Shown piece by piece: positions 45,459-60,502 of a stretch of 64,000 nt of DNA; positions within the stretch are counted from its first letter, which is position 1; the number at the start of each line of letters is the position of its first letter. The translations under genes and the position numbers were made by a program. Source of the stretch: Candidatus Aminicenantes bacterium UBA6228 (lineage in GTDB: Bacteria; Acidobacteriota; Aminicenantia; Aminicenantales; Saccharicenantaceae). The DNA is taken from assembly GCA_002441005.1 (NCBI GenBank), contig DJWO01000002.1:70784-134783 (forward strand). Direction: 5' to 3'. The notes beneath the pieces are model-generated. The model was not told where the DNA came from, searched no databases, and worked only from the letters and a program-made list of their open reading frames with translations.

Positions 45459-45485
45459 TTATTAGCAGCTTGAAAGGAGGTTTCA

Positions 45486-45791: not shown

Positions 45792-45870
45792 AAGAGAGAA
45801 TAACCGGTTGGCAAAGGCTGAGGGGCCCGGGGGGTCCTGACAGCCATTATGGTTGAGGTCAGTAGAAGCC

Positions 45871-45919: not shown

Positions 45920-45987
45920 TCCTCTCTACCATTTAATCATTTGTTAAATCTGGTAATTAAGATTCCTTTTAAGGAGGGATAAGAGAA

Positions 45988-46623
45988 ATGAAAAAACATC
46001 AAAAGATTTTCATTTTCGCCATCGCCACTCTTGTCATCTTTATCTCGAGCCAGAGTTGCGCCACCAAAAAATTTGTCAGAACCGAAGTAGGAACAGTAGA
46101 TCAGCAGGTAAAAGATGTTAAGACAGCGGTTGATGAAAACACCAAAACCATCCAGGCCCATGAAGAAAAGCTGGCCAGCTTAGGGTCGCTTATCACCCAG
46201 CAGGGCTCGGAGCTAAAAAATGTGGAAACAAGCCTGGAAGAAGTCCGGAAAACTGCTCAAGGGAAACTAATTTTAAAGGAAGTCCTCAAGAACGACGAAG
46301 TTAAATTCGCCTTTGATAAGGCCGAGTTGACGGCTGAGGCTAAAGCCAGGCTGGATGAATTTGTCCAGAAACTTATCGAACTCGACCGCGGCCTGTATCT
46401 TGAAATTCAAGGGCATACCGACAATACCGGCCCGGATAGCTGGAATATGAGGCTGGGGAAGATGAGAGCAGAGGCAGTTAGAGATTATCTGTACAAGCAG
46501 CATCACCTGCCACTTCACCGGATGGAGGTCATCAGTTTAGGAAGCTCGGTGCCGGTAGCCGATAACAACAGCCGTGAGGGAAGAGCAGCCAACAGGCGGG
46601 TCGAAATCTTAGTCTATGAATAA
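45988..46623 (+). CDS. OmpA-family lipoprotein (coiled-coil + OmpA/MotB peptidoglycan-binding domain)
   Basis: Lipobox SQSC and a C-terminal OmpA-like domain (…NRRVEI). Confidence 0.8.
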   Translation: MKKHQKIFIFAIATLVIFISSQSCATKKFVRTEVGTVDQQVKDVKTAVDENTKTIQAHEEKLASLGSLITQQGSELKNVETSLEEVRKTAQGKLILKEVLKNDEVKFAFDKAELTAEAKARLDEFVQKLIELDRGLYLEIQGHTDNTGPDSWNMRLGKMRAEAVRDYLYKQHHLPLHRMEVISLGSSVPVADNNSREGRAANRRVEILVYE

Positions 46624-46653
46624 ATGGGGACACATTCTATATTTCCTATTTTT
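46622..46653 (-). repeat. GTGTCCCC-box repeat (R orientation, variant)
   Basis: AAATGGGGACACATTCTATATTTCCTATTTTT, located at the stop of the OmpA-family gene. Confidence 0.8.
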
Positions 46654-46699
46654 CGCCCCTTTTTTATGGCGACAAGATTGAGAAATAGAGAATACCTAT

Positions 46700-47551
46700 A
46701 TGAAGAGGGTACCTGGATCAGCCAATTTTCGCCGCCAGGCGATGGTGGCCCTCCGGAGTGTGGCGGCAGCGACGGCACTGCTTTACCTTGCTGGCTGTGC
46801 AAGCGGGCTACGAGCCCCAGGATCACTGCCGCCTCCTCCATCCTCTGCCTCACGGCCTGGTCCCTGGGAGACAAGCTACGCTGTCTATGACCCCGCCCTT
46901 TTTGGGCCAGAGTTGCCACTCACCGGACTTGTTGAACAACACCGGCTCAAACTCAAAAACGGCAAGCTAAAAAAGGCCAGGCTTCTCATCATCAAATCAC
47001 AGCGGCGGCTCGAACTCTGGGTTGGGAAAAAGATGGTTAAGGCCTATCGTATCCAACTCGGCCAGAATCCCGCCGGGCCGAAAAAGCGGCAGGGTGATTT
47101 GCGAACTCCTGAGGGCGAATACTTTATCTGCGAGCACCGGCCATCAACCTACCATCGCGGTCTGATGATTTCCTATCCAAATGTTCAGGATGCCAGGCGC
47201 GGACTGGAAGCGGGCTTAATCAGTCAGAAACAGTTCGACGAGATTAGAGCTGCCATCAAAGAGGGGAGATGCCCCCCACAGAACACCAAGCTCGGCGGAC
47301 TGATTTTGATTCACGGCCAGCTGCCCGAGTATACGGCAGATTTTGCCCGGAGCCAGAGGGCAAAACCAGGCTCGCGTCGGCCAGGACTTGAGCCCGGGGA
47401 TGCCAATCCCGCCGAGATTCGCGAATTTCATGATTGGACCAACGGCTGCATCGCCCTGTTCAATCCGGACATTCGCGAGCTCTATGAGTTTGTCCCGGAC
47501 GGAACCCCCGTGACCATTGTGGCTAACGGTCCAGTCACCGCCCCTCATTAA
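46700..47551 (+). CDS. L,D-transpeptidase (YkuD domain) lipoprotein
   Basis: Catalytic HGQ…TNGCIAL motif and a lipoprotein signal peptide. Confidence 0.8.
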   Translation: MKRVPGSANFRRQAMVALRSVAAATALLYLAGCASGLRAPGSLPPPPSSASRPGPWETSYAVYDPALFGPELPLTGLVEQHRLKLKNGKLKKARLLIIKSQRRLELWVGKKMVKAYRIQLGQNPAGPKKRQGDLRTPEGEYFICEHRPSTYHRGLMISYPNVQDARRGLEAGLISQKQFDEIRAAIKEGRCPPQNTKLGGLILIHGQLPEYTADFARSQRAKPGSRRPGLEPGDANPAEIREFHDWTNGCIALFNPDIRELYEFVPDGTPVTIVANGPVTAPH

Positions 47552-47750
47552 AATCGGGACACCCTAGATTTTCACTATTTTCTCCCTACAAATTTGTGCT
47601 AATTCGGGACACCTTAAATAATACGGACACAATCTATATTTCCTCTTTTTACCATCACCAGCATAGATGTACTGACTTAAAAGAAGCGAGGTAACGCAAA
47701 GCCAAAACCATCTTTAAAAAAAAGTGAATATCTAGGGTGTCCCCATTTTT
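47552..47750. mobile_element. MITE-like ~200-bp element with terminal inverted GTGTCCCC-box repeats (three R-type units on the left, one F-type on the right)
   Basis: The left end CGGGACACCCTAGATTTTCAC is the inverted match of the right end GTGAATATCTAGGGTGTCCCC. The element lies immediately after the L,D-transpeptidase stop. Confidence 0.7.
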
Positions 47751-47791
47751 CTTTTCTTGCAGGAAGTGGACATATTTGGTATATTATTGCC

Positions 47792-48412
47792 ATGAAATGG
47801 GCGCAGTTTCTCGACCTTGCTGGCAACGAGCCTATTTTCTCCTCTTCGCTTCTAAAGACAGAGGACATCAGTCCCGCCGAGGCTGGCAAGCAGCTCTCCC
47901 GTTGGGTCAAGTCTGGAAAGCTCATCCAGATTCGCCGCGGTCTTTACATGTTAGCTGAGCCATATATAAAAATCAGACCTCATCCCTTCTATGTCGCCAA
48001 CAAGCTCCAGAGAGGCTCTTATGTCAGTCTGCAGTCAGCCCTGGAATACTATGGCCTTATCCCGGAATATGTGCCGGCCGTTACGAGCGTTACTACCAGG
48101 CGCACCCAAACTTTCGCCACTCCCCTTGGCAATTACATTTTCCGCCATGTCAAAAAGGAGCTTTTCTTCGATTATGTTCAATTAGACATGGGAGGAGGGC
48201 AACTGGCTTTTGTGGCCACGCCAGAAAAGTCCCTCCTTGATCTTTTATATCTCACTCCCGGCTCTGATAATCCTTCTTATCTCCGCGAACTAAGACTTCA
48301 GAATCTCGAAAATCTGAATATTGAACGTTTCAAATCTCTGGCCAGCCAGACACGCAGCCGCAAGCTTATCCGAGCCGCAGGAATTCTTGGAGGTCTGTTA
48401 AGGAGGCTTTAA
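47792..48412 (+). CDS. abiEi: AbiEi-family type IV toxin-antitoxin antitoxin / transcriptional regulator
   Basis: 206 aa with an N-terminal wHTH and the typical C-terminal domain; paired with the downstream NTase. Confidence 0.75.
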   Translation: MKWAQFLDLAGNEPIFSSSLLKTEDISPAEAGKQLSRWVKSGKLIQIRRGLYMLAEPYIKIRPHPFYVANKLQRGSYVSLQSALEYYGLIPEYVPAVTSVTTRRTQTFATPLGNYIFRHVKKELFFDYVQLDMGGGQLAFVATPEKSLLDLLYLTPGSDNPSYLRELRLQNLENLNIERFKSLASQTRSRKLIRAAGILGGLLRRL

Positions 48413-48426
48413 AGGAAGGCCGAAAA

Positions 48427-49260
48427 ATGAAAGAGCAAATCAAACAGATCATTCAACAGGCATCGACTCCTCTTCAAGCCAGAAATCTTATGCGCGAGTA
48501 TCTTCAGGCTCGCCTTCTGGAGTTTATTCAAGAGCACGGGCTGTTCCGTACCTGGGTCTTCCAGGGGGGTACAGCCCTTAGATTTCTCTACGGCCTTCCC
48601 CGCTATTCTCAGGACCTGGATTTTTCTTTGGACCAGTCAGACGCTTCTTATGATTTAAACCAGGCTATTGCCCGGATCCGTCCGTGGTTTGAGGCTGAGG
48701 CTTATGAAGCCGATTTAATAATTAAAAACGAAAAAAATGTAAAGTCAGCCTTTGTCCGCTTCCCCTCGCTCCTTTTTGAACTCGGCCTTGCGCCGCACCG
48801 CTTTCAGGTTTTCTCGGTCAAAATCGAGCTCGACAGCCAACCTCCGGCTGGAGGTAGAACCGAGACCACCATTATCCGCCGCCCCGTCCTTTTGAACCTT
48901 CATCACTATGATCAGGCAACACTTTTCAGTGGCAAAGTGCATGCCTTACTTAGCAGAAATTATACCAAGGGGCGGGATCTATACGACTTCTTCTGGTATC
49001 TTTCCGACCCCTCCTGGCCGGCCCCGAATTTCATTTATCTTAATGAAGCTCTGAAGCAAACAGGCTGGAGCGGCCCTCAGCTTGACCAGAATAACTGGGC
49101 CGATCTTGTGGCCGAAAAGCTCGAGGCTGTTGACTGGAGGCAAGCCATTGAAGATGTCCGGCCTTTTTTAGAAAGAGCTTCCGATCTAAACCTTTTGACT
49201 AAAGGCAATGTCCTCAAGCTGCTGGGGACTCGTTCCAGGGAGGCGAGGAAACATGGCTGA
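48427..49260 (+). CDS. abiEii: AbiEii-family nucleotidyltransferase toxin (DUF1814)
   Basis: GGTALRFLYG…SQDLDF nucleotidyltransferase motif. Confidence 0.8.
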   Translation: MKEQIKQIIQQASTPLQARNLMREYLQARLLEFIQEHGLFRTWVFQGGTALRFLYGLPRYSQDLDFSLDQSDASYDLNQAIARIRPWFEAEAYEADLIIKNEKNVKSAFVRFPSLLFELGLAPHRFQVFSVKIELDSQPPAGGRTETTIIRRPVLLNLHHYDQATLFSGKVHALLSRNYTKGRDLYDFFWYLSDPSWPAPNFIYLNEALKQTGWSGPQLDQNNWADLVAEKLEAVDWRQAIEDVRPFLERASDLNLLTKGNVLKLLGTRSREARKHG

Positions 49261-49272
49261 ATCGGCTGGATA

Positions 49273-49464
49273 ATTCGGGACACCCTAGATTTTCACTATT
49301 TTCTCCATACAAATTCGGGACGCCTTAATAAAAAATATGGACACGATCTATATCTTCCGTATTTCCCCTCGGCAACAGAGATGTCCAGAGTATAGGCAAG
49401 GAAAATATAGGGAAGCAGAAAGCCTCCTTAGAAAAATAGGAAATATCTAGGGTGTCCCCATTTT
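49273..49464. mobile_element. Second MITE-like element with the same terminal inverted repeats
   Basis: The left-end 31 nt are identical to the 47552 element, and the right end is AAAATAGGAAATATCTAGGGTGTCCCCATTTT. Confidence 0.7.
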
Positions 49465-49520
49465 CCAAGCTGATTGAGTATTTAAATTGATAATGATTTC
49501 GACCGTCATCTATAATCAAA

Positions 49521-49778
49521 GTGATCATAAAAAGGCAAGAATCAAGAATAAGGGAAGGCAGGATTTTAATGGCTGATGAAATAATTTTTTTAGTTACAGA
49601 ATCATTGGAAGGTGGTTACGAAGCTAAAGCCTTAGGGTATCCCATCTTTACCCAGGCAGAAACCATAGAGGAACTTAAAGAGGCAGTTAAGGACGCCACC
49701 CGTTGCCATTTTGACCAGGCCGAAATGCCACGGATTATTAGATTCCACCAGGTCAAAGAAGAAGTCCTTTCATTATGA
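49521..49778 (+). CDS. hicB: HicB-like antitoxin
   Basis: 85-aa RNase H-like fold family (UPF0150), immediately upstream of hicA with a 4-bp overlap. Confidence 0.65.
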   Translation: MIIKRQESRIREGRILMADEIIFLVTESLEGGYEAKALGYPIFTQAETIEELKEAVKDATRCHFDQAEMPRIIRFHQVKEEVLSL

Positions 49779-50023
49779 AGCTACCCAGAGATATTCAGGG
49801 TATTGAACTGGCCAATTCACTTAGCAAATTTGGCTATAAAATTACCAGGCAAACAGAAAGCCACTTGCGTCTAACAAGAATCTCGGAGGATGTACATCAT
49901 ATTACAATCCCAAAGCATAAAACTCTGAAAATTGGGACGTTGAATAACATTCTTAATGATGTTGCCGGGCACCTGGGCAAGACAAAAGAAGAAATAGCTG
50001 AAGAACTCTGGGAAAAGAATTAG
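49775..50023 (+). CDS. hicA: HicA mRNA interferase toxin
   Basis: 82-aa YcfA/HicA-like protein with the conserved His. Confidence 0.75.
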   Translation: MKLPRDIQGIELANSLSKFGYKITRQTESHLRLTRISEDVHHITIPKHKTLKIGTLNNILNDVAGHLGKTKEEIAEELWEKN

Positions 50024-50098
50024 CTGGGAGCCACACCGTATTTATAAGGTGTATCACGTTTTTTGCTTTTCTATAGGCCAGCCGGCTGCTCTTGTCCC

Positions 50099-50133
50099 GA
50101 AAATAGGAAATATCTAGGGTGTCCCCATTTTTC
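50099..50133 (+). repeat. GTGTCCCC-box repeat (F orientation)
   Basis: CGAAAATAGGAAATATCTAGGGTGTCCCCATTTTT. Confidence 0.85.
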
Positions 50134-50153
50134 CAGTCTTCTCCCTATCTGGC

Positions 50154-50696
50154 CTACAACATTCTTTCTATTTCTTTAAGTACATTCTCAAAATGACAGA
50201 TATCATCTGCATCTCTCTGGGTTGAAACTTTTTTTCTCAGATAATCAATCCTTCTCTTTAAATCTGATAAAGATAAGCTCCTGGTCCTTATGGTTTCAAC
50301 TAACAGTTCCGGAGTCCTTTTTAATCTGTGTTCGGTTATTATTCTTCTCACTTCTCTCATAAAAGCCCTGTTATTCTCGTCTGATAATATGTAACAGTTA
50401 TGATAACGGGCATAAGCAAGCGAAGCTGCTTCCCCGATATCTAATGTTGTTGTCAGTTCAGAAAATAATTTTAGTTCTTCAATATCATTCAGAGACACCC
50501 TCCAGATTAGCCGGGCATTTATTATCTTCTGGAGGACATTTCTTTGCTTGTCCCATTTAATTTCGCTGGTAACCTCTTCAGTTATCAAAAAGACATAGCC
50601 GGATGCCTTAGGCACGACAGGCAGGACATCTAATTTGATCAAATCTATGACCGAATTCGCATCCATTACTATTGCGCCTCTTCCGCCTCCGGCCAA
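50154..50696 (-). CDS. DUF4411-like PIN-domain protein
   Basis: The probable true start is MDANSVIDL… with a PIN-like acidic-residue pattern. Transcribed immediately after the HTH-ImmA gene. Confidence 0.5.
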   Translation of the reverse strand: MAGGGRGAIVMDANSVIDLIKLDVLPVVPKASGYVFLITEEVTSEIKWDKQRNVLQKIINARLIWRVSLNDIEELKLFSELTTTLDIGEAASLAYARYHNCYILSDENNRAFMREVRRIITEHRLKRTPELLVETIRTRSLSLSDLKRRIDYLRKKVSTQRDADDICHFENVLKEIERML

Positions 50697-50713
50697 CTCT
50701 GCCTCCCACCTAT

Positions 50714-51970
50714 TTAAGTGGTGCGTCTGGCTTCAGAAATTGCACAAATGTCTTCATTTTGTAAGCCAGCCAGCTCGAGCAATTCAATCAGCTTATTCCT
50801 GCTGATGAGCCCTCCCCTTGCTGCTTCGACTGCCAGATAGAAAAGATGCTCGGTGGCGTTTTGGAAAATACCCCCTTTCTCACTATCCTTATCGGGGTCT
50901 TTCTTTCTCAGAATATCCTTAATTGCCTTACCGGCCGGGCTACTATCCTGCTCTAAAAGTAAATCCTTCTCTTTTCCACTTATAAGATTAAGGTTAAAGA
51001 GCCTCCAGATAGAAGCTTCGACGCTTACCCCAAAATATCTGGCCATTCGTACCACATGCGGATAGTTAATCGTGGATGACCTCGATTGTTTGGCCACAGC
51101 CTGCCTGGCTTCGTAGCTTACAACTTTATCTTTGACCATCAATGGCACCTGAATCCTTGACGGCATGGCCTTGCCGCACCTCTTCAAGAACTCTCTTACA
51201 GCGTTTTCTGGTATAAGAAAACAGGCAGCAAAAACATCTGCTCTTACTTCTCGAAGATCTTTCTTGCCTTCTTCCCGGGAAACTATGGCCGGCAAATCGT
51301 TCAGATCACAGAGTGCATGGCAGTATTCATGAATTACGGAATATCTCTGGCGAACAGGAGGTTCGGTACTATTAATTGCACAGACTGTAGCCTCCCCGGA
51401 GCGAAAAGTGAAACCGGAAAGCCCTGCCGGCAATTGCATCTCGAGGGTTAAAATCCCCTGGGTATCAAGCAAAGAAGCCGGATCGCCTACCGGAGCAACT
51501 CCCAGGCCGAGCCTGTTTCTTTCCTGAGCAGCAATCTCTTGTCCCTGCTCAACGGCATCCCACCTGGTGCGCATTTTTCGGTCGTATGCACAAAGAGGTC
51601 CAGAACTAAGGCGGTTAACGCCCAATTTATTTTCAAGGTCAAAGATAGCATTGATGATTTCCAGCCCTCTGTTCATGCCTTCCTGTATTTGATGGTCAGA
51701 ACAAACCTCCGGAACTGCCCTTAAAATGTAAGAGAGCCCCTCAGCCTCAAAGGCCTCTTCAAAAAAGCTGTGAATTGGACGCCCGTATAAGTGGGCTAAA
51801 GCCGCCAGCTCCAGACTTGAAACCTTTCTCTTGCCTGCTTCGATCTGGGCAATTACGGGCCGAACCAGGCCCAGGGCGCTTGCCACCTGTTCTTGAGTAA
51901 ATCGAGCTTTTTCCCTGGCTTCCTTTAGCCTTCGGGCCAGTTCTTCCTGGGTTATGGTCATTTTTGCCAC
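50714..51970 (-). CDS. HTH-XRE + ImmA/IrrE metallopeptidase fusion regulator
   Basis: N-terminal XRE HTH (FTQEQVASALGL) and a HEXXH zinc-peptidase motif (VIHEYCHAL) with a downstream Glu. Confidence 0.8.
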   Translation of the reverse strand: MAKMTITQEELARRLKEAREKARFTQEQVASALGLVRPVIAQIEAGKRKVSSLELAALAHLYGRPIHSFFEEAFEAEGLSYILRAVPEVCSDHQIQEGMNRGLEIINAIFDLENKLGVNRLSSGPLCAYDRKMRTRWDAVEQGQEIAAQERNRLGLGVAPVGDPASLLDTQGILTLEMQLPAGLSGFTFRSGEATVCAINSTEPPVRQRYSVIHEYCHALCDLNDLPAIVSREEGKKDLREVRADVFAACFLIPENAVREFLKRCGKAMPSRIQVPLMVKDKVVSYEARQAVAKQSRSSTINYPHVVRMARYFGVSVEASIWRLFNLNLISGKEKDLLLEQDSSPAGKAIKDILRKKDPDKDSEKGGIFQNATEHLFYLAVEAARGGLISRNKLIELLELAGLQNEDICAISEARRTT

Positions 51971-52253
51971 CTTAAATTAAGTAATTAAGCTAACAAGCTT
52001 CAGCCAGAGGCGATATTATCATTAATCATTAACTGAGCTCCCTTCGGATTGGGGTTCCGCCTCCTCCCTTTTAAAATATAGAAACTATTACATCATTTGT
52101 CAAGATATGGCTATTTATGTAATTAAATACTACGCCAACTAAAAGAAAGTCAGCTACATTTGGCGCGGCCTGAATCGGGCCAATTCAGCAGGAATAAGAT
52201 CCAACAAGATTAAGTTATATAATTTTTATCCGCCAGCCCCTTCGCCGCCAGAC

Positions 52254-52289
52254 AAAAAAATAGGAAATATAGAATGTGTCCCCATTTTT
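52254..52289 (+). repeat. GTGTCCCC-box repeat (F orientation)
   Basis: AAAAAAATAGGAAATATAGAATGTGTCCCCATTTTT. Confidence 0.85.
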
Positions 52290-52309
52290 GCCCTGATTTC
52301 TTGCCGATT

Positions 52310-52786
52310 TCACTTTTTAATTATGCCAAGCTCAGCTAAAAAAACCGCCAGATCTATCTCAACAAGGTTTTTAGCCTCGTCTGGAGGAAAATAATCAGAA
52401 GCAAGCCCATCAAGCCATTGAGGGCTCTTTCTTGATCCAATCCTGCAAAGAGTGAGATAACGTGCGGTCTCAGAAGCATCTCGTAGCTTCCTAAATTTTT
52501 TAAAAGCTTCTTCGCTAAGGTGATTATGGATTAATTTTTCCCGCCAGGCATGAGGAGACGTATTAAATTTGCCATCTCTACCGACGGGTATGCTTGTCTC
52601 TGTATGCTTCTCTCTCTTATCATATAGCCAGCACTCAAAATAATGAATCGCAGAATAAAATGAGGCAGTGATACCCCAATCATGGTACGGAGGTTCGTTT
52701 ACTAGTTTTTTTGCTAATTTTTTATTGTGTTCAGCTTGAGAAAGATGCACATGACGATCGGCCATGTTTATCTCGCAAAAATGCAC
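52310..52786 (-). CDS. Hypothetical protein with a HEPN-like Rx4-6H motif (REKLIH); third gene of a three-gene operon
   Basis: 158 aa in an AT-rich region. The Rx4H motif was seen by eye; I recognise no other family signature. Confidence 0.45.
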   Translation of the reverse strand: MHFCEINMADRHVHLSQAEHNKKLAKKLVNEPPYHDWGITASFYSAIHYFECWLYDKREKHTETSIPVGRDGKFNTSPHAWREKLIHNHLSEEAFKKFRKLRDASETARYLTLCRIGSRKSPQWLDGLASDYFPPDEAKNLVEIDLAVFLAELGIIKK

Positions 52787-53382
52787 TGCGCCTGGGGATG
52801 AATAAAATCTGTCTTGTCTGAAATAAATACCGGAGGATAAAAGAACTCAAAAATCAAAGAAGAATATATTTTTCTTATTTCATATTCAATATCTAAAAGC
52901 TGGTCCATTAAACTACCATCATACCGATCTGAAGTAATTAGAATATAAACCTGAATTTCTTCTCTAAATTTTTGAGCGTAAATAGATTTAACTTTTCTAA
53001 TCTTGGCATAATTCGCGGCAATTCTGAGAAGGGCAGCTTGCTCTAAATCTTCCTTCTCTAATTCCATAATATATGACATTAAACCAAGAATTGCCTCCAG
53101 ATTATCATAATAACTTCTAATCTCTTTTGTCCTAGTCTTAGATAGGGGGAAAATCGATGAGGCTATAAACACGCCAGGGTCTGTATAATCGCTCCTCGCC
53201 ACGATTTTCTCAAGCAGTCTCTCGAATTCTCTAAAAACGAATTCACGAAGGCTATATCTATATTCTTTATCTCGCCAGGGTATTGCATAGCTTTTTGTTT
53301 CCCCACCCGGGCAAAGAGTATTATAACTATTCCCTGGCCAAATTAAATCTGTTCCTGTATAAACAGTTTGTGCTGTATCCAA
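52768..53382 (-). CDS. Hypothetical protein (204 aa), second gene of the operon
   Basis: Long ORF in AT-rich DNA that overlaps its neighbours in an operon-like arrangement; no recognisable motif. Confidence 0.5.
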   Translation of the reverse strand: MDTAQTVYTGTDLIWPGNSYNTLCPGGETKSYAIPWRDKEYRYSLREFVFREFERLLEKIVARSDYTDPGVFIASSIFPLSKTRTKEIRSYYDNLEAILGLMSYIMELEKEDLEQAALLRIAANYAKIRKVKSIYAQKFREEIQVYILITSDRYDGSLMDQLLDIEYEIRKIYSSLIFEFFYPPVFISDKTDFIHPQAQCIFAR

Positions 53383-53384
53383 AG

Positions 53385-54092
53385 TTACTCTCCTAATAAA
53401 CTTAAATGCGACTCTAAAGTGCTTTTCATAATCCTAACGCTCTCTTCTAAAAAGGCCTGGATTGATTCTTTTTTAAAATCATAAGTATTTTCAGCTAAAG
53501 TATTTATGTCTAAAAGAAATGAGATTAATCTATCTTCATGAGGAAGAGATATATCATGGGCAGATCTAATCCGTGTCCACTTATTTGCCTCAAAATCAGA
53601 TAATGTTTCCCTATTCAAGCAATGGATCTCCAATTCACGAGGCCTGGCTATCGGCGCTTCTTTATTGATATATTTAGACAGAAGATGCTCTGCAGAAGAG
53701 CCGCTGTCTAACTCTATAACCCAATGAGTCACAATCGCCAGTCTCGTAACCTTAGCATTTAGCTCATTTTTTAGATATTGAAACAACGATAAAAAGTTTT
53801 CAAAAAGTTCTTCGAAGGAAGAAACATTACTGAATTCATCCTTTTTATATCTTAATATAAGATCAACTCTGTTTTTTGATATAGACAAATTGTATGTCTT
53901 ATCTTTTGAGCTCATTTGAATTCTTGGGATTTCAACAGGAGCATCGTCTGGTATAGGCAAGATTACAGGTTCACCATCCAGAACATTTAGGTATTTCTCC
54001 CTTATTGTAACTCCTGCCTTTAGCACATCAAAAATAACGATCCCCGGACTAAACAGTACTAGTTGAATGCTATCTACCCTTGTATTCATCAT
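53385..54092 (-). CDS. Hypothetical protein (235 aa), first gene of the operon
   Basis: Long ORF 2 bp upstream of the next gene; no recognisable motif. Confidence 0.5.
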   Translation of the reverse strand: MMNTRVDSIQLVLFSPGIVIFDVLKAGVTIREKYLNVLDGEPVILPIPDDAPVEIPRIQMSSKDKTYNLSISKNRVDLILRYKKDEFSNVSSFEELFENFLSLFQYLKNELNAKVTRLAIVTHWVIELDSGSSAEHLLSKYINKEAPIARPRELEIHCLNRETLSDFEANKWTRIRSAHDISLPHEDRLISFLLDINTLAENTYDFKKESIQAFLEESVRIMKSTLESHLSLLGE

Positions 54093-54465
54093 AAACTCCT
54101 GTTTTTATTATCATATACTCTACTTAAAAAATCAAAAAAGCAGATCATTTAGGAACCCGCTTAATGATAAGGCTACCCTCTTCTTAAATACGCATTCTGT
54201 CAAAGCCATCACTTCCCTTTTATTTTATAAGTATAACATATTGTTCTTCATTTTTAATAATTCTATTTTAATTTTAAGATAGTGTTTCCAAGCCATAAAG
54301 TTTGTCTCGCCCTGGGCATTAAGAATAAATAGCCCCGCCCAATTCTCCCGGCTCGACCAAAATATGGTTGATTTTCCCATAGACATGAAGCTTAACTAGG
54401 CAGTCATCCCTCAAGAAAAAGAAAGGTTGGTTGTGTCGCCTCTTACCATCTGTAAAAAAATTCAT

Positions 54466-54501
54466 TTGACAAAACGTTATGTGTGGTATATTCTTACCAC
54501 A
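54466..54501 (+). promoter_or_regulatory. Sigma-70-type promoter (TTGACA, -10 TATATT/TATTCT) with an overlapping inverted repeat TGTGGTA-tattct-TACCACA (candidate XRE operator)
   Basis: Read directly; lies 20-50 nt upstream of the HTH-XRE gene ATG at 54520. Confidence 0.45.
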
Positions 54502-54519
54502 TAAAGGAGAGAAAAGGAA

Positions 54520-54879
54520 ATGGTTGCCTTTGGTGAATTTATCAGGGAGCTCAGGTTAAAGGCGGGGCTGACGCTACGTCATTTTTGTCAGCTGACCGGC
54601 TTCGACCCGAGCAACTGGAGCAAAATTGAGCGGGGGCTATTATCGCCCCCAAAAAGCAAGGCAGTGCTGATAGAAATCGCGCGTGTCCTTAACCTGACCG
54701 AAGAATCTGAAGACTACAAGACCTTATTTGATCTGGCCGCCATCGGTCAGATCCCTGTAGATTTGGTTTCCACCCCCCAGGTGATGGAAAAGCTGCCAGT
54801 TTTCTTTAGAACGATAAGAGGCGAAAAGCCGACTCGCCAGGAACTTGAAGATTTGATTAAAATTCTCGGTGAAGAATAA
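54520..54879 (+). CDS. XRE-family HTH transcriptional regulator
   Basis: HTH (LTLRHFCQLTGFDPSNWSKIERG). Confidence 0.75.
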   Translation: MVAFGEFIRELRLKAGLTLRHFCQLTGFDPSNWSKIERGLLSPPKSKAVLIEIARVLNLTEESEDYKTLFDLAAIGQIPVDLVSTPQVMEKLPVFFRTIRGEKPTRQELEDLIKILGEE

Positions 54880-55512
54880 ATGTCCGCTTCCAAAAGACCC
54901 CCGGCCACCATTACTCCGCCCTGGCTAAGCTTTGACTATATAAGACAGCAAGCAGACAACTTCAGACAACAATACGTAAAACCTCCAGACCTTGTGCCTG
55001 TCCCCATGGAGGATGTAGTCGAGCTCGATTTGAAGTTTCAAATAATCCCAATAATTGGCTTACAGGACAGAATAGACGTCGATGGTTTTTTAACTAATAA
55101 TTTAAAAGCTATCTGTGTTGATTATAATGTATATACGGATGAACGCTGGTCGTCGCGCTTGCGATTCACGCTGGCTCACGAAGTCGGTCATCTTGTCCTG
55201 CATAAAGAACAAATACAACAATGCAGATTTAGAACCCCCGAAGATTGGATCCATTTCAGAGAAGACTTCACTGAAGATGATTTAAATTGGTTCGAAGCCC
55301 AAGCTTATGAATTTGCCGGAAGACTCCTCGTCCCAAAAGAAGAACTGGAACAGCAAATAAGATCACGTAGTGATGAGATAAGAACTTTTAAGGAACGTTT
55401 TCCGGACAGTCCTGATCTTAACGAGGCTATTTCGCGGGTCATTTGCGGCCATTTCGGTGTCTCAGATCAGGTAATTTGTAGAAGGATTGCAAAAGAGAAA
55501 ATCCGCTTATGA
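54880..55512 (+). CDS. ImmA/IrrE-family metallo-endopeptidase
   Basis: HEXXH motif (AHEVGHLVLH); start abuts the stop of the HTH gene. Confidence 0.75.
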   Translation: MSASKRPPATITPPWLSFDYIRQQADNFRQQYVKPPDLVPVPMEDVVELDLKFQIIPIIGLQDRIDVDGFLTNNLKAICVDYNVYTDERWSSRLRFTLAHEVGHLVLHKEQIQQCRFRTPEDWIHFREDFTEDDLNWFEAQAYEFAGRLLVPKEELEQQIRSRSDEIRTFKERFPDSPDLNEAISRVICGHFGVSDQVICRRIAKEKIRL

Positions 55513-55572
55513 TGATCTAAGGCCGCGGCTGTTGAGCTAATTCAATCTTACAAGTGAAAGAGAGGTAAGGGA

Positions 55573-56073
55573 ATGGCAGTTGAAATTATTAAAGCAGTGG
55601 GCGCATTTATCATAAGCCCTATAATATTCCTTTATGTTTCATTAAAAATAGCAAAATTTCATTTTGAAAAAGACATGAGAAAGCAATATCTCATTGCAAA
55701 GGATAAAACAGCCAACGAAATGCTGACTTCTATGACTGAAATGTTATTAGCCATGTGGGATGTTTATAATGCGACCAAGATGGACACGGATGATAAAAGA
55801 ATAAAGGATTTATCTTGTGAGAACGCCAGGGGTAGGTTCTGGTTTCACCTGAGACAGACTTATCTTCAACTGGCTCGGATGGGTCTATATCATGGGACTG
55901 AAATTGTTGAAGACATTGCCAAGCTACAAGACGAGTGGTCCGATAAAATAAATAATAATGATTTCAAGTTTTTAGATACATGGGAAGAATATCGGGTAAA
56001 CACGGTATTTCTTCTGCTGGAAAAACTTCACACAGAACTAAAGGACACTGTTTTCGGCAAAAAGCCCCTTTGA
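55573..56073 (+). CDS. Hypothetical membrane-anchored protein (166 aa)
   Basis: N-terminal TM segment and an AT-rich context. Confidence 0.4.
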   Translation: MAVEIIKAVGAFIISPIIFLYVSLKIAKFHFEKDMRKQYLIAKDKTANEMLTSMTEMLLAMWDVYNATKMDTDDKRIKDLSCENARGRFWFHLRQTYLQLARMGLYHGTEIVEDIAKLQDEWSDKINNNDFKFLDTWEEYRVNTVFLLLEKLHTELKDTVFGKKPL

Positions 56074-56159
56074 TTAAATTCTTGTACAAAATAGATGATA
56101 GCACTGTAGATATAGCGTTTTATGTCCAGACTTAAACCTCCCAGCATAATCCGATGATT

Positions 56160-56340
56160 TCGGCCACTGAATCCAGTCGAAATCCAATCGTGGCCGGCCG
56201 CCTTTCGGAGCGTAGCAACGCCGGGCCTAATTTTTTTATCCCAGCTGGCCAAGTTCCCGTCGAAATATCCACCTGAATTCAATTGGAATTGACGGCCGGA
56301 TTCCATTGGAATGGGTGGCCGGCTTCCCGTCGGGATACGC
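56160..56340. repeat. Iteron-like array of ~26-bp imperfect direct repeats (GGCCGGC-TTCCCGTCGRRAYAYCC)
   Basis: At least five units with variable 10-25-bp spacers; two more units lie at 56657-56706. Confidence 0.6.
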
Positions 56341-56363
56341 ATGGCTTTGTTAATCATTCCTAA

Positions 56364-56585
56364 CTGTTAATAGGCGCCTAGTATTACAATGTAGATCTGC
56401 ACACAGTTTTACGAGGCCGGCGGTAGTGGCTGGTAGGAGGGGGAGAGTCACATTTTACTTGGGCTCCGCACTGGAAGATACCAGGTGCCGAGAACCATTG
56501 AGAAGATCAGACGAAACCGATAGGCGGGCAACATTTTGAAGATTAAGGGATTCGGGCGGTTAATTTTAAATTGGTAAAGGACGGG
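56364..56585 (+). repeat. Conserved ~200-nt module (copy A) shared with 58335-58560; candidate structured ncRNA or recombination site
   Basis: A 75-nt block, TACTTGGGCTCCGCACTGGAAGATACCAGGTGCCGAGAACCATTGAG[A/G]AGATCAGACGAAACCGATAGGCGGG, is shared with a single A/G difference; the flanks are about 80% identical. Confidence 0.75.
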
Positions 56586-56735
56586 TTCCTTATCGCATCA
56601 CAGGCGAAAAAAGGAGGATATCTGGTGTGCCCCTTTTTTGGCCACCTATTCCAACTATCACCACGAAATTGGCCGCCTTCCAGTCGAAACACCCGGCCGG
56701 CTTGCATCGGAATACCGGAATACAGAAGCCACCAG

Positions 56736-56873
56736 AGAAAAAAGGAAATATAGACTGTGTCTCCCTTTTCAATCGATAAAAGGGAATAAATAGGGCCTAT
56801 TGATTTTCCTGGCTGATGCGTTTATGGCCCGTGCCCGAAAAAAATAGTGAATATCTAGGGTGTCCCGATTTTT
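56736..56873 (+). repeat. Pair of GTGTCCCC-box repeats (variant + canonical F) forming the right end of the composite element that starts near 56364
   Basis: AGAAAAAAGGAAATATAGACTGTGTCTCCCTTTTC … GAAAAAAATAGTGAATATCTAGGGTGTCCCGATTTTT. Confidence 0.8.
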
Positions 56874-56956
56874 CTGGGAGCAATGTCCCGAAAGGCGAGG
56901 GCATCAGCCCGAAGCCTATATGCTGTGTTATGCGCTGGTGCCGAGCATGTATTTCA

Positions 56957-57640
56957 TTAATGAGCATTCTTTTTACTCTCCATTAAGAACTCTTTAATGT
57001 CATTAATAAATTCATTGAGTTTCCCCTCTTTAGACAGATTATACACTCTTAGCCCAGTTCTTTGACTACTGATTAAAGATACAGGTGGCACGCTTAAACT
57101 CATACAAAGGCTATACCCCAATACGCTGGGATACCTATTTCTTATGTTATCCAAGATAGCTCTATCTTCGTCAAGCCAGTTTGTGCTTTGCCAAATCTTG
57201 CAACTTATGATTATTAGAGGATGGATCAAATTATTTTCTCGCTTACCTATAGCCAGGTCTACGGCTTTGTATTTTGGATATTTTTTAAATCCTCTATTTT
57301 CAAACATATAAAATTCTTCTGTTAAAATCTTTGCATTCCAGAATAGTTCGACTGCCTTTTCAGCTTCGCTTTCCTTGATTGCTTTTTTCAATATGTCAAA
57401 ACAAAACTCCTCAAAGGCAATTCCTCTAAAATTGTTGTAAGTGTTTTCACCCAACTTAGGTTTAATGTTGCCCTTTTCTTCCCAAGTGATCTTTAGGAAG
57501 TGTGATAACGATTTAATATCAAGTTTCTTTTTCCATTTTTTATAAAAAATGAGAAGTTCATTATATCTGCTATAGCCTTTATCTTTAAGTTCCTGCAAAT
57601 AGTCGGTAGTTTTCTTGATCCTTCCCATATTATTCACCAA
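56957..57640 (-). CDS. Hypothetical protein, possibly a PD-(D/E)xK-like nuclease
   Basis: 227 aa in AT-rich DNA. The pattern AVDLAIGKRENN…IIISCKIW resembles a D…(E)xK motif; weak support. Confidence 0.4.
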   Translation of the reverse strand: MVNNMGRIKKTTDYLQELKDKGYSRYNELLIFYKKWKKKLDIKSLSHFLKITWEEKGNIKPKLGENTYNNFRGIAFEEFCFDILKKAIKESEAEKAVELFWNAKILTEEFYMFENRGFKKYPKYKAVDLAIGKRENNLIHPLIIISCKIWQSTNWLDEDRAILDNIRNRYPSVLGYSLCMSLSVPPVSLISSQRTGLRVYNLSKEGKLNEFINDIKEFLMESKKNAH

Positions 57641-57776
57641 TAGTTAGCGTGGCATTTGCCTATAACTTAAAATAACCGAACTACTTCATTTATGCTCCCG
57701 GACCGACACATTTTGTGAAGTATTTCGTTTAGGCAAGATTCTAAGTGAAATCTCGAATTGTAACCTTTTCTTGTTA

Positions 57777-58337
57777 TCATTTCTTTCCAAAATCCAAAGA
57801 GCTTTTAATCCGTCCGATATCCTGCTGGCTGACGGGAGTACAAATTTCTGTAGTTTTCGAGTTTTTATGTCCAGGTAACTTTTGAACATACCATAAATCT
57901 GTAGTACCTTCTAAAAGATGAGTAGCAAAACTATGTCGCAAGGTGTAGACAGTAACATTTTTAGCAATACCCGCTTTTTGGCTGACAGCTTCCAGAGTCT
58001 TCTCAACTGTTCTTGCTGTTAAATGGCTATTTGGTTCTGATCCTATGAAAAGCCAGTTTTTAGGCTGATAGGCCTTCCAGTATTCTCGTAACACTCTTAG
58101 AGCAACTTCTGAAAGAACTTTATATCTTTCCTTTCGACCTTTTGCCGCCTTTATATAAATCATATTGCGTTTCGTATCAATATGTTCTGTAATTAATTTT
58201 ATCACCTCACTCACCGTTAATCCAGCAGAATATACCAGCATAAGAATTGCTTTATGCTTGATATTATTTACAGACTCAAATATGCCTATGACATCTTCAC
58301 GACTAAGAATAATGGAGAATTTTTTCTTGGTCAGCTG
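57777..58337 (-). pseudogene. 5'-truncated, catalytically degenerate tyrosine recombinase (phage-integrase family) remnant
   Basis: C-terminal catalytic-domain motifs are present (LMLVYSAGLTVSE, TLRHSFATHLL, GHKNSKTTEICTPV), but Arg-I is replaced by Thr, His-II by Tyr and the catalytic Tyr by Cys. The frame opens just after a TGA at 58338-58340 with no upstream start codon and no N-terminal core-binding domain. Confidence 0.7.
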
Positions 58338-58560
58338 TCAATAGGCGTATAGTATTGCGAGGTAGATCGGCACATAGTTTCACGAGGCCGAAGACACTGG
58401 TGGGGAGGATGGTGAGAGTCACATTTTACTTGGGCTCCGCACTGGAAGATACCAGGTGCCGAGAACCATTGAGGAGATCAGACGAAACCGATAGGCGGGG
58501 ATATTATTGCCGGAAAGGGATTCGGTTGGTTAATTTTAAAGTTGGTTAATTTTAAATTGA
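58335..58560 (+). repeat. Conserved ~200-nt module (copy B), abutting the recombinase truncation point
   Basis: See copy A; begins CTGTCAATAGGCG…. Confidence 0.75.
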
Positions 58561-58593
58561 AAAGTGGCAGGTTCTGCTATCGCTTCACGCGGA

Positions 58594-58692
58594 AACAAAT
58601 AGAATATATAGCGCCTCCCGATTTTCGGGCTGACGCCTGTATGGCCCGTGCCAGAAAAAAAATAGTGAATATATAGGGTGTCCCTATTTTTT
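58594..58692 (+). repeat. Pair of GTGTCCCC-box repeats (variant + canonical F) ending the copy-B composite element
   Basis: AAACAAATAGAATATATAGCGCCTCCCGATTTT … AGAAAAAAAATAGTGAATATATAGGGTGTCCCTATTTTTT. Confidence 0.8.
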
Positions 58693-58739
58693 GAAAAATA
58701 TCTTATAATAACAGGCAAGAAATTTGACAGAGGCATTGA

Positions 58740-59246
58740 TTGGAAGAGAAAGGCAGCAGCTTAACACTTTATCAGTTACTCTTAATAATAGTTTTCATAG
58801 TTATAGCTATTGTGCTTTTATATCCAGTCTATGAAAAAGCTGTGAACACAGCCAGTCAGAAATCCAGCATCAAAGATATGGTCACCTGGTCTCGGGCTTT
58901 CTCCGATTATTTGTTAGAGCATAGCACTCTTCCGGCGATTTCCGGCCCATTAGCCTTTAAGAAAGATGTACTCGAAGAATTAAGCCCGTATCTTGAGGTG
59001 ATAAGGCTTAACGATTACTGGGGTAACAGGTTCTATATATGGACAGGGCTGTCCTGCCATCAGTACGGGCTTGTCCCGGGCGATCAAAATTATATCGTCG
59101 CTTCATTCGGCCGAGACCGGATTAAAGAGAATTGGCGCTACAACCCGCTGCTTCCCGCAGCTGGCCTTTATGATATCAAAGCCATCTCGGATTTTGACCG
59201 GGATCTCATCATTTATAACGGCAGTCTGATAAGAGGTCCCAGATGA
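58740..59246 (+). CDS. Pilin-like protein with a degenerate N-terminal prepilin motif (paralog of 63011..63571)
   Basis: Hydrophobic N-terminal helix LLLIIVFIVIAIVLL, and shared C-terminal blocks SFGRD / SYGRD and IIYNGSLIRGPR / IANWNGSIVVGPR with the downstream pilin. Confidence 0.5.
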   Translation: MEEKGSSLTLYQLLLIIVFIVIAIVLLYPVYEKAVNTASQKSSIKDMVTWSRAFSDYLLEHSTLPAISGPLAFKKDVLEELSPYLEVIRLNDYWGNRFYIWTGLSCHQYGLVPGDQNYIVASFGRDRIKENWRYNPLLPAAGLYDIKAISDFDRDLIIYNGSLIRGPR

Positions 59247-60502
59247 ACCTCGTCCATTTCTTAAACAAGCCAGTGAGCTCATGTTGCCAGATAAAAAGTA
59301 TTCCTGCTCTCAATATAATTTACAAAAAACCTTTTTTCTATGCCGTCATGTTCCTCATCTTCCTTTTTATTTTATTGCAGATGTGGCCTTTCCTGACGGG
59401 GATAAAAGTGGATGATACTTCTTATTATACGACCGCCCATGGAATCCTCGATAATATTAATATCTATGATGAAACAGAATTCTATGCTTTAGCCGCTAAG
59501 CTTTTCGGACAATCCATAGTGGTCTGGCCTTATACCTATCCACCCCTTTTCGCTCAGATCCTCCTTCCGCTTTGCCTGTTGCAATATCAAACTTTTACGG
59601 CTATCTGGATGATATTTAACATAATTGCTGGTTTTGCCTGTATCTTCTTAACTTTTAAGCTTATACTTCGAGAAAAACAGAACAATTATTTGCTTTTGAG
59701 CTTAATCGTACTTTTTTGTTTGGAAAGCCAGCCCTTCAAACTGAATATTTTATATGGCCAGGCTCATTTTATTGTTTATTTGTTGATAATTCTGTCTCTT
59801 TTGTTCTTCCGCAAACAAGAATTCTGGCTTTCTTCTCTTTTCCTGTCTTTAGCAACTTTTATTAAGATATTTCCAGTCATCTTTATGCTCTATTTCCTTC
59901 TCAAAAAAGACTTTAAATATATAAAGAACTTTATCCTTAGCTCCTTAGCTATTCTTTTTCTTTCAATCGTAGCTTTCGGGTCAAAGATGTGGATTGATTA
60001 TATCTTTTACTTTAGCGATATATTCCTTAAAAGTAAGAGAACGCTTTTTTCTCTTCATTTTAATACTTATCAGAATAATAAAAGCTTAAGAGCTTTTTTA
60101 TTTAATCTGATAGAACCCGGTGCGCCGGGCAGCAGCAAATTGGGTCTTATCTATCTAATCTTTATTGCCTTGTTTTTAGTTTTAAGCATCCTGGCTATTT
60201 TGCGGAGAAAGGATGATATTATTTATGCCTTTTCTATTTTAGGCCTAGTCGCAGTGGTCCTATCTCCTATGTCCTGGCGCCACCATTACGTTATGGTTGT
60301 TCTTCCTTTCTTCTACTTGCTTTTTCAATATCTTCGAGAAAAAAGGTATATTCCAGTTCTCATCTTATGCTTCCTGGTGGCCTTGATTTTCTATTATCCC
60401 AACTGGGCCGGTTTCCCTTTTAGTTACATGATCCTTTTTGCCCTTATTGGTCTGTTGGCCATGTTATTATTTGAGCCGCGGGTGAAAAACGTTCAAGCAT
60501 GA
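59243..60502 (+). CDS. Polytopic membrane protein, DUF2029/GT87-like glycosyltransferase candidate
   Basis: About 10 TM helices, low GC, and co-located with gmd and a PAP2 protein. Confidence 0.45.
   Translation: MNLVHFLNKPVSSCCQIKSIPALNIIYKKPFFYAVMFLIFLFILLQMWPFLTGIKVDDTSYYTTAHGILDNINIYDETEFYALAAKLFGQSIVVWPYTYPPLFAQILLPLCLLQYQTFTAIWMIFNIIAGFACIFLTFKLILREKQNNYLLLSLIVLFCLESQPFKLNILYGQAHFIVYLLIILSLLFFRKQEFWLSSLFLSLATFIKIFPVIFMLYFLLKKDFKYIKNFILSSLAILFLSIVAFGSKMWIDYIFYFSDIFLKSKRTLFSLHFNTYQNNKSLRAFLFNLIEPGAPGSSKLGLIYLIFIALFLVLSILAILRRKDDIIYAFSILGLVAVVLSPMSWRHHYVMVVLPFFYLLFQYLREKRYIPVLILCFLVALIFYYPNWAGFPFSYMILFALIGLLAMLLFEPRVKNVQA

Follow-up and report, generated by a model that had tools for sequence, protein, structure and literature searches.

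Introduction

To our knowledge, the main stores of small exchangeable modules kept at dedicated sites are integrons and the dif modules of Acinetobacter, both of which were discovered in Proteobacteria. Two reports describe integron cargo as rich in toxin-antitoxin and defence functions (PMC13108822, PMC12614218), and two others describe the Acinetobacter dif modules as commonly carrying toxin-antitoxin genes, in many configurations (PMC13141974, PMC12907356). Here we analyse a 64-kb window (the whole stretch of DNA under study, from contig DJWO01000002.1 of Candidatus Aminicenantes bacterium UBA6228), in which an array of ~21 kb, likewise rich in such cargo, is divided into modules by copies of a 36-bp site. 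This is a hypervariable module array, with the repeats as its exchange points. With modest confidence, we favour the fuller account that modules are exchanged at these dedicated sites by conservative recombination, through an enzyme encoded away from the array.

The window's DNA lies within a 256-kb contig of JGI metagenome 3300001594, and its leucyl-tRNA synthetase is 89-90% identical to proteins from metagenome-assembled genomes (MAGs) of Candidatus Saccharicenans (Aminicenantia, Acidobacteriota), whose uncultivated lineage is common in anaerobic digesters. A literature search returned no description of such arrays in Aminicenantes or Acidobacteria.

Results

A dyad-symmetric site clustered at one locus

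The site is an imperfect palindrome of ~36 nt, made up of GAAAAATAGKGAAWAT, a hexamer (CTAGGG or AGAnTG) and TGTCCCC-ATTTTT. Its core, GTGTCCCC, occurs seven times in place of an expected 0.88, a count that none of 100 shuffles reached. An nhmmer profile built from the copies finds 14 of them in the window at E<0.01, starting at 41401, 47716, 49431, 50099, 52255, 56606, 56735, 56839 and 58658 on the forward strand, and at 46619, 47549, 47618, 49269 and 49330 on the reverse strand. All are confined to 17.3 kb (41401-58692), and none is present in ~56 kb of flanking core DNA (1-41 kb, 10 kb past the window end, and core loci), in keeping with the association between repeats and module boundaries drawn in an earlier note on this DNA.

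An exact-pattern scan of metagenome contigs yielded 41 related loci (278 kb) with 141 more copies. Across 115 non-identical copies, the information in the site ends at ~36 nt, and the best dyad axis falls between the T and A of the central CTAG. The outer arms are symmetric (AAAAATnGnGA / TCnCnATTTTT), but symmetry is lost in the inner four bases of either side; the central hexamer has two main forms. Three subtypes can be distinguished: b (GAATAT-CTAGGG), a (GAAAAT-CTAGGG...CCCG), which is nearly always inverted relative to b, and c (centre AGAnTG). The earlier note had described the repeats as pointing one way, which holds for the b copies: they are co-oriented in the window and in all 25 related loci with at least two of them, while a sites are opposite to b in 26 of 30 cases. 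Orientation alternates in the left part of the array (41.4-49.5 kb), as it does in L065 and L089, and the sites at 49.4-58.7 kb are direct repeats. Right-arm fragments are often tandemly duplicated after a full site (L040, L065, L067, L070 and L075).

At orthologous positions, sites are ~94% conserved where the adjacent non-coding DNA is unalignable. The lack of GTTRRRY cores reported previously extends to all 144 copies inspected, none of which has either attC core (GTTRRRY or RYYYAAC), and single copies fold no better than shuffles as single strands (z from 0.06 to -1.76).

Homology breakpoints lie inside the repeats

Many of the related loci are orthologous to the window, having in common the flank of acyltransferase, kinase, OmpA and YkuD genes or the pilin flank, at 76-98% identity. 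The same modules recur at fixed lengths across strains and species, with their order and neighbours differing, or with a module replaced or missing; this turnover is seen even among loci that are 93-98% identical in the DNA they share. A module encoding PIN-like and M78 proteins precedes HicBA in L045, L064 and L067 and follows it in the window, and a GHKL-ATPase module has three different left and three different right neighbours. L070 is 98.5% identical to 49565-52283 and then continues into another three-gene operon, with the left breakpoint, 52283, inside a c site. L040 has an extra 1088-nt segment (a nucleotidyltransferase gene) directly after the b site ending at 49466, and other genes after the b site ending at 50134. 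L075 has the pilin-side block of the window from 58691, with other modules upstream, and L063 is without 41438-47614. The blastn breakpoints between the window and related loci are at 41437/41440, 46624, 47749-53, 49464-6, 50130-4, 52283, 54437 and 58691. The genes therefore do fall into discrete repeat-bounded modules, as the earlier note had proposed: the 14 copies bound the modules, the breakpoints in relatives fall inside the repeats, and relatives carry different modules in different orders, rather than the same order without repeats.

Pairs of copies sharing only the upstream flank remain homologous through the site and diverge at site positions 35-40, whereas in pairs sharing only the downstream flank homology starts at positions -10 to 5. 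Within the site, the 45 pairs with a common upstream flank only differ mainly at positions 23-36; the 14 pairs with a common downstream flank only vary at positions 1-2, 8 and 17-21, whereas 22-27 are the same in all of them. Hence the left arm goes with the upstream module, the right arm with the downstream module, and the hexamer with either. The junction between HicA and PIN genes (site 50099) illustrates this: the window and L040 have in common HicA, the left arm and CTAGGG, L045 and L070 have in common AGACTG, the right arm and PIN, and between the window and L070 the hexamer differs (CTAGGG and AGACTG respectively) although the sequence to its left and right is identical.

Extent of the array and its sites

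The earlier note placed the array at 47552-58340, ending at a dead recombinase; it in fact runs from 41.4 kb to ~62.9 kb, bordered on the left by a conserved plsC-like acyltransferase gene and on the right by a type IV pilin cluster. Its sites, and the two copies of a longer element that ends in one, are as follows.

41401-41436, forward strand: c-type site (centre AGATTG), left edge of the array (nhmmer E=1.4e-4)
46619-46654, reverse strand: c-type site, inverted, overlapping the OmpA stop codon (nhmmer E=9e-6)
47549-47751, both strands: composite A, comprising an a site at 47549-47584 (reverse), a right-arm fragment at 47601-47619 (reverse), a degenerate c site at 47618-47653 (reverse) and a b site at 47716-47751 (forward)
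49269-49466, both strands: composite B, comprising an a site at 49269-49305 (reverse), a right-arm fragment at 49310-49329 (reverse), a degenerate c site at 49330-49367 (reverse) and a b site at 49431-49466 (forward)
50099-50133, forward strand: b-type site (nhmmer E=1.8e-7)
52255-52291, forward strand: c-type site (centre AGAATG; nhmmer E=3.7e-6)
54415-54444, forward strand: degenerate c-type site (GAAAAAGAAAGGTTGGTTGTGTCGCCTCTT), from direct reading of the sequence
56364-56640, forward strand: long element, copy 1 (partial), conserved and non-coding, ending in a b-like site at 56606-56639
56735-56770 and 56839-56874, forward strand: two further co-oriented sites, c and b respectively, bounding ORF-less segments of 95 and 68 nt
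58336-58692, forward strand: long element, copy 2, starting TGTCAATAGGCG, with a degenerate site at 58591-58625 and ending in a b-like site at 58658-58692

At the left edge, the homology of L050, L062, L065 and L069 begins at 41440, and that of L063 stops at 41437. Composites A and B, each ~200 bp and 78% identical to one another, flank the AbiE pair. The terminal arms of composite A (47550-47581 and 47718-47749) are 32-nt inverted repeats that are 91% complementary, and composites of this kind, with an inverted a site followed by a forward b site, fold through their terminal arms (z=-4.3). The flanks of both composites lack any direct repeat or target-site duplication, and comparison with L063, in which a 150-nt segment stands in place of the composite, indicates replacement rather than insertion. 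At the degenerate site 54415-54444, the homology of six loci begins at 54437-54443, and an intact b site occupies this position in L045, L059, L060 and L073. The b-c-b cluster at 56606-56874 recurs in L042, L048, L053, L070 and L074. The right boundary probably lies near 62.9 kb, where the window itself has no recognisable site; in L044 and L052, a b site marks the precise point at which homology to the pilin flank begins (62915).

Modules and their cargo

The segments between sites encode the following modules.

41437-46618, forward strand: histidine kinase, YfiO-like protein, sigma-54 response regulator, small open reading frame (ORF) and OmpA-family protein (Pfam)
46700-47551, forward strand: L,D-transpeptidase (YkuD; Pfam), an 822-894-nt inter-site unit in seven loci
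47792-49260, forward strand: AbiEi antitoxin/regulator and AbiEii nucleotidyltransferase toxin (Pfam; PADLOC 2e-56 and 4e-66)
49521-50023, forward strand: HicB-like small ORF and HicA toxin (HicA, Pfam 1.9e-10)
50154-51970, reverse strand: PIN-like 180-aa protein and helix-turn-helix (HTH)-M78 418-aa protein (ImmA/IrrE, RmrA-like)
52310-54092, reverse strand: three-gene operon (158, 204 and 235 aa)
54520-56073, forward strand: HTH protein (CapH-like, 119 aa), M78 peptidase (CapP-like, 210 aa) and 166-aa protein
56957-57640, reverse strand: 227-aa protein, in the module of the integrase remnant
57777-58337, reverse strand: tyrosine recombinase remnant, catalytic domain only (Pfam Phage_integrase 2e-31)
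58693-62914, forward strand: last module, with pilin-like 168-aa protein, GT87 glycosyltransferase, PAP2 and NAD-dependent epimerase/dehydratase (Pfam)

The cargo consists mainly of toxin-antitoxin and defence modules with their own regulators, together with envelope and pilin-modification genes. Inter-site segments cluster into 44 distinct units of 48-5451 nt and zero to five genes; 17 are ORF-less, 21 carry two or more genes, and the ORF-less site-bounded segments measure 48-340 bp. The mixed orientation described in the earlier note is borne out, with 48 genes co-oriented with the array and 20 opposite to it. The kinase-to-OmpA module is a 5.2-5.4-kb inter-site unit with other neighbours in L050, L062 and L065, and is not found in L063; the AbiE unit (1517-1537 nt) recurs in L041, L058 and L078; the PIN/M78 unit (2109-2121 nt) occurs in five loci, with four different left and four different right neighbours; the CapH/CapP-like pair and 166-aa protein recur as a unit in L043, L048 and L070 with other neighbours; and the block of L075 homologous to the last module begins at 58691. 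The annotated start of the histidine kinase (41350) precedes the site at 41401-41436; since orthologue homology begins at 41440 and there is an ATG at 41441, translation probably starts after the site.

Profile searches altered several of the first assignments. The AbiEi/AbiEii pair is a strong match to the named families. For the proposed HicB/HicA pair, HicA is secure and its HicB-like partner has no profile match. In the module read as DUF4411 with HTH-ImmA, the 418-aa HTH-M78 protein stands, and DUF4411 gives way to a PIN-like assignment for the 180-aa protein (weak PIN_6, PADLOC PDC-S70, JGI DUF3368). What was described as a fourth module does contain a three-gene operon, an HTH/M78 pair and a 166-aa protein, divided between two modules by the degenerate site at 54415-54444. 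The 227-aa protein, suggested to be a PD-(D/E)xK nuclease, finds no match in Pfam, NCBIfam, PADLOC or PDB sequences, and the operon at 52310-54092 and the 166-aa protein have no informative family matches, with weak ones at most.

The CapH/CapP-like pair stands beside the divergent three-gene operon (52310-55512 region), which close relatives have exchanged for an unrelated operon, L070 and L045 carrying a different three-gene operon in its place; both of the swapped operons are candidate defence effectors. The genes next to the pilin cluster also have alternatives: the window (58740-62815) and L075 have the pilin-like 168-aa, GT87, PAP2 and epimerase genes, and the other genomes compared (L044, L051, L054, L089 and L091) have PMT_2, FAD oxidoreductase and methyltransferase genes, which suggests that these blocks are variable pilin or envelope glycosylation cassettes.

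The long element, an IS110-family element and other repeats

The long element is a non-coding segment of ~355 nt ending in a b site, with at least eight further non-redundant copies in related loci. Its second copy abuts and truncates the integrase gene, the cut coinciding with the element's left end. Two explanations of it were rejected: as a structured RNA, since RNAalifold on eight copies gave -21.8 kcal/mol with an unfavourable covariation term, and as the decayed 5' part of the integrase gene, since tblastn with six intact relatives found no N-terminal similarity. Rfam returned nothing for the whole window at gathering thresholds, nor for 56.0-58.8 kb at E<=1.

Tandem units of ~24 nt, resembling repetitive extragenic palindromic (REP) sequences, lie at 56150-56360 and 56640-56735 and consist of GGCCGG with a short palindrome (e.g. 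ATTCCATTGGAAT or TCCCGTCGGGA). The spurious 109-aa ORF at 56028-56357 is a product of these units, and one such unit, CCGATGATTTCGGCCACTGAATCCAGTCG, stands directly upstream of b sites in L044, L048 and L052.

An IS110-family element of ~1.2 kb (Pfam DEDD_Tnp_IS110 and Transposase_20) is present in three of the 41 loci: L041, L059 (583-1805) and L078. It splits a c-type site exactly at the boundary of hexamer and right arm, with junctions ...AGATTGTG (longer: ...ATAGATTGTG) and TCCC... (TCCCTGG...), and an IS110-free version of the target site is intact in L045 (~5055-5090). Analogous elements, of the IS1111-attC group, target the attC sites of integrons.

A dead recombinase and the search for an enzyme

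Read upstream, the ORF of the tyrosine recombinase remnant is open as far as a stop at 58338-58340. Its similarity to intact relatives of 280-320 aa begins only at about residue 100, the N-terminal ~100 residues being gone, and tblastn with six intact relatives detected no N-terminal remnant. Relative to these proteins, the first catalytic Arg has become T, the His of HxxR has become Y, and the nucleophilic Tyr has become C. The earlier note's reading of a recombinase without its N-terminal domain and three catalytic residues is therefore correct. Against the integron-integrase model the remnant scores 113 bits, with a cut-off of 265, and XerA/XerD models match it better.

The array continues on both sides of the remnant, and L075 is without 56875-58690, which comprises the 227-aa gene, the remnant and the long element. 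Because it is catalytically dead, lies inside one module, and is absent from the orthologous L075, the remnant is a dead passenger and not the array's enzyme. Its family was also rejected as the source of the cognate enzyme: its intact relatives have other, unrelated surroundings in which the repeat is missing, the contigs of an intact relative (L087) and of a split relative (L088) are without the site, and homologues occur in only three of the 41 loci. The split relative (L088:235-1326), 79% identical to the remnant, is divided into two ORFs, one with a SAM_4 domain and one with the catalytic domain; its surroundings, which include methyltransferase and HSDR_N genes, are unrelated. The family seems prone to decay in several settings.

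The ~400 ORFs in 280 kb of arrays include, in the 25 of 65 families listed, no recombinase other than the dead integrase and the IS110 transposase; no xer gene is present in the 85 kb examined. Contig ends are not enriched at sites, 16 of 62 lying within 250 nt of one compared with 13.4 expected.

Genomic setting and distribution in the genus

Core genes occupy 1-41 kb of the window (LeuRS, LptE, HolA, S20, riboflavin genes, FtsY, RecJ, LptD, ComEC and RNase PH), and the first genes to the right of the window are those of the type IV pilus cluster (pilin, PilR, PilS, PilC, PilT/B), followed by MutL. The GC skew of the window gives weak evidence against a position of the array at the terminus or dif, in that it lacks the change of sign expected there.

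The interval between the pilin and acyltransferase genes differs among relatives (L089-L092). A distant Aminicenantes genome (L092) has a single gene and no sites there. Candidatus S. subterraneus (L091) has three sites, around an archaeal-type AdoMet synthase gene, and L090 has four. Another species (L089) has eight sites of a further subtype, with inverted pairs between acyltransferase, amidohydrolase, AdoMet synthase and aminotransferase genes. A 16-mer scan of the genome collection returned mostly chance matches, with true copies in only a few Acidobacteriota MAGs; the repeat was not found in viral contigs, the composite was not found in plasmids, and the long element was not found in phages. 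The site family is genus-specific, with varying copy number. A 10.6-kb contig binned as a Thermoplasmatota archaeon (L034, JAQUQK010000049.1) has three sites and matches several kb of the window at 79-91% identity; it almost certainly belongs to Saccharicenans and was mis-binned.

A second variable slot lies to the left of the main array. At 35098-36642, the window has a low-GC segment (a DUF234 protein and an ATPase_2 fragment) where L063, at 94% identity, has 29 nt, and where L089, L090 and L091 have the archaeal-type AdoMet synthase gene flanked by sites. Next to this, a 120-nt direct repeat (36642-36761 and 39992-40111, 98% identical) flanks two amidohydrolase genes; each repeat contains three copies of the 20-nt GGGACGTGATACTCTGTCCC, and two of these together make up a 42-nt palindrome that is nearly perfect. 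Where the window has the 120-nt repeats, L089 has pairs of the 36-bp site.

Discussion

How modules may be exchanged

Conservative recombination by an unlinked recombinase is judged most likely because of the dimer-site architecture, the independent swapping of a hexamer between arms of only 14-16 nt, the strict polarity of the sites, their conservation above that of the surrounding non-coding DNA, and the fast turnover of modules among near-identical strains. Modules would be excised and re-inserted, or exchanged with incoming DNA, at the sites, with both arms bound by a recombinase encoded elsewhere in the genome, as happens in integron arrays and with Acinetobacter dif modules. Co-oriented sites would support excision and integration, and inverted a-type copies would give rise to the alternating pattern on the left side of the array. 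A more ambitious version, which we put forward only tentatively, is that the locus is an independently evolved, integron-like gene-capture platform, combining a ~36-bp double-stranded dyad site, a CTAG-centred crossover, a trans-encoded recombinase and hexamer classes that act as compatibility groups, where multi-gene, self-regulated defence and toxin-antitoxin modules would be cut out, kept and reordered at a single chromosomal locus next to the pilin genes; its enzyme would possibly be a host Xer-type, serine or DEDD recombinase.

Several observations weigh against a dedicated recombination system, and many of them speak for its main rival, in which the repeats are MITE-like (miniature inverted-repeat transposable element) ends or remnants, at which modules are exchanged through RecA-dependent homologous recombination or repeat-anchored DNA uptake, with no dedicated recombinase. 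No cognate recombinase was found among the ~400 ORFs (25 of 65 families listed), nor any circular module contigs. The co-segregation of half-sites is equally expected from homologous recombination within the repeat, or from any crossover inside it. The extra segment of L040 has only one endpoint at a site, and in L059 the crossover behind one junction seems to have fallen at the outer margin of the left arm. Several of the related loci represent one population in different metagenomes, and the set is to that extent not independent. L089 has no sites in its own short variable interval, and because its inverted pairs (200-500 bp, with homologous interiors) lie between housekeeping-like genes, the sites are not tied to defence cargo and partly resemble MITE ends. 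On the rival reading, transformation is plausible, as ComEC and the type IV pilus cluster are nearby. The rival must nevertheless accommodate the absence of a target-site duplication, and of any autonomous element bearing such ends across the 280 kb of loci that carry sites; the replacement, rather than insertion, that separates the window from L063; the strict co-orientation of b copies in 25 of 25 loci, which is unlike random MITE insertion; the conservation of the sites across species above the surrounding non-coding DNA; and the mere 14-16 nt of arm identity on either side of an independently swapping hexamer, which is short for RecA-dependent exchange. We regard it as unlikely, though deserving serious attention. 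The accretion by MITEs that the earlier note entertained survives to the extent that MITE-like inverted pairs exist, between core genes in L089 as well; the duplications, autonomous partner and random orientation of such elements were not found.

The remaining explanations fare worse. The sites might be the ends or targets of a transposon family, for instance through one-ended or tandem insertion of a Tn3- or Tn7-like element, or through rearrangement driven by the IS110-family element that has the site as its target, making the array a graveyard of nested insertions; a and b copies do form 32-nt inverted repeats, right-arm fragments are tandemly duplicated beside full sites, an IS110-family element lies inside a site in L041, L059 and L078, and Tn7-like elements are described as carrying defence cargo and inserting in one orientation (PMC8649781). 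This is improbable when no array encodes a DDE or TnsB-like transposase (25 of 65 families listed), target-site duplications number zero, most modules are bounded by two sites of one polarity and not by an inverted pair, and the IS110 element is in only three of 41 loci. Dyad symmetry typical of operators, a strictly intergenic position and the many modules encoding HTH regulators would suit a regulatory element, either the operator of a regulator that acts as a dimer or an insulator resembling a terminator, that happens to lie at gene boundaries, where synteny is lost in any case. However, the breakpoints are inside the 36 bp and not just in intergenic DNA, sites bound the ORF-less segments of 48-340 bp and are seen upstream as well as downstream of genes, whichever strand these are on, the 56 kb of neighbouring operons has none, and single copies form no terminator-like hairpin, all of which makes a regulatory role highly improbable. 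A decayed integron, or a cluster of attC sites lacking an integrase (CALIN), would have a dead integrase and drifted attC sites, and could draw on the co-oriented repeats that immediately follow stop codons, the abundance of toxin-antitoxin and defence modules in the cargo, and the partial match of the remnant to integron-integrase and XerA-type models. It is barely credible given that R''/R' core motifs are in none of the 144 sites, single sites do not fold, the remnant falls at 113 bits against a cut-off of 265 and inside a module that L075 lacks, and modules are multi-gene and of mixed orientation (48 co-oriented, 20 opposite). Of the decayed or unconventional cassette system envisaged in the earlier note, the cassette-like array is thus strongly supported, and the decayed integron is not, its attC features being absent and the remnant a passenger.

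Were conservative exchange at dedicated sites confirmed, this would be a third such system, with an unrelated site and in Acidobacteriota, showing that the module-library architecture arises repeatedly; defence islands could then grow by site-directed module exchange and not random accretion, and the locus would offer a new recombination site and, once the enzyme is identified, a new recombinase. Were homologous recombination between MITE-like repeats responsible instead, the array would still be a clear natural case of 36-bp repeats serving as portable homology for module exchange. If the sites are indeed dedicated ones, the array would also supply a catalogue of candidate defence modules, such as the three-gene operons swapped beside the CapH/CapP-like pair.

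Comparison with known systems

The composites resemble MITEs in being non-coding segments of ~200 bp with 32-nt terminal inverted repeats and several copies. They differ in having neither a target-site duplication nor an autonomous partner in the 280 kb of site-bearing loci; moreover, solo ends dominate and are strictly co-oriented, and the conserved unit is the ends and not the whole element. Cis-mobilisable and integrative and conjugative elements (CIME/ICE) that accrete in tandem, and the composite islands of staphylococcal cassette chromosomes (SCC), also consist of modules separated by direct repeats of att sites, mostly without their own integrase, though at least some units have an integrase gene adjoining a site. 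The array has such direct repeats between modules that are mostly integrase-free, and a decayed integrase beside a site; unlike these elements, it has no intact integrase, nor has any of the related arrays, its modules are much smaller, and its site lies outside any tRNA or conserved gene. Moreover, the truncating long element separates the dead integrase from the site, and the intact relatives of that integrase are not linked to the site.

In Neisseria, the 20-bp dRS3 repeats, present in hundreds of copies genome-wide, are targets of Piv/IS110-family recombinases, and together with Neisseria intergenic mosaic elements (NIMEs) they form arrays in which dyad-symmetric repeats bound short non-coding mosaic segments and mark variable regions. 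Short dyad-symmetric repeats, a variable region, and an IS110/Piv-family enzyme that inserts into the repeat are common to both systems, whereas the copies described here are few, clustered at one locus, and bound multi-gene modules.

The closest known systems are integron arrays, sedentary chromosomal integrons and CALINs among them, and the Acinetobacter dif modules. As in integrons, discrete units are each followed by a co-oriented recombination site abutting the stop codon; units, including ORF-less ones, are shuffled, gained and lost among close relatives; and an IS110-family element is targeted to the site, in parallel with the IS1111-attC elements. The array is nevertheless not an integron, as it has neither the IntI, with its characteristic extra domain, that stands beside attI at the head of an integron array, nor attC. 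Its site is a 36-bp imperfect palindrome of double-strand type, rather than a hairpin of 57-141 nt, and is without GTTRRRY/RYYYAAC cores; no IntI, attI or Pc is present at the array, which is flanked by plsC-like and pilin genes; and some sites are inverted. Most integron cassettes hold one promoterless ORF in the orientation of their array, whereas the units here are often multi-gene, self-regulated and in either orientation. With the Acinetobacter dif modules (pdif sites, XerC/XerD), the array shares short two-armed sites with a 6-bp centre that bound modules, orientation that alternates around modules (in the left part of this array, L065 and L089), and, if the preferred account of conservative exchange is correct, a host-encoded recombinase unlinked to the modules. 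At ~36 bp, the site is longer than the 28-bp dif (11-6-11), and seems unlike the usual dif consensus, which may not be that of this genus. The dif modules also differ in their setting, the array being chromosomal and at one locus, with most sites on its right side in direct repeat.

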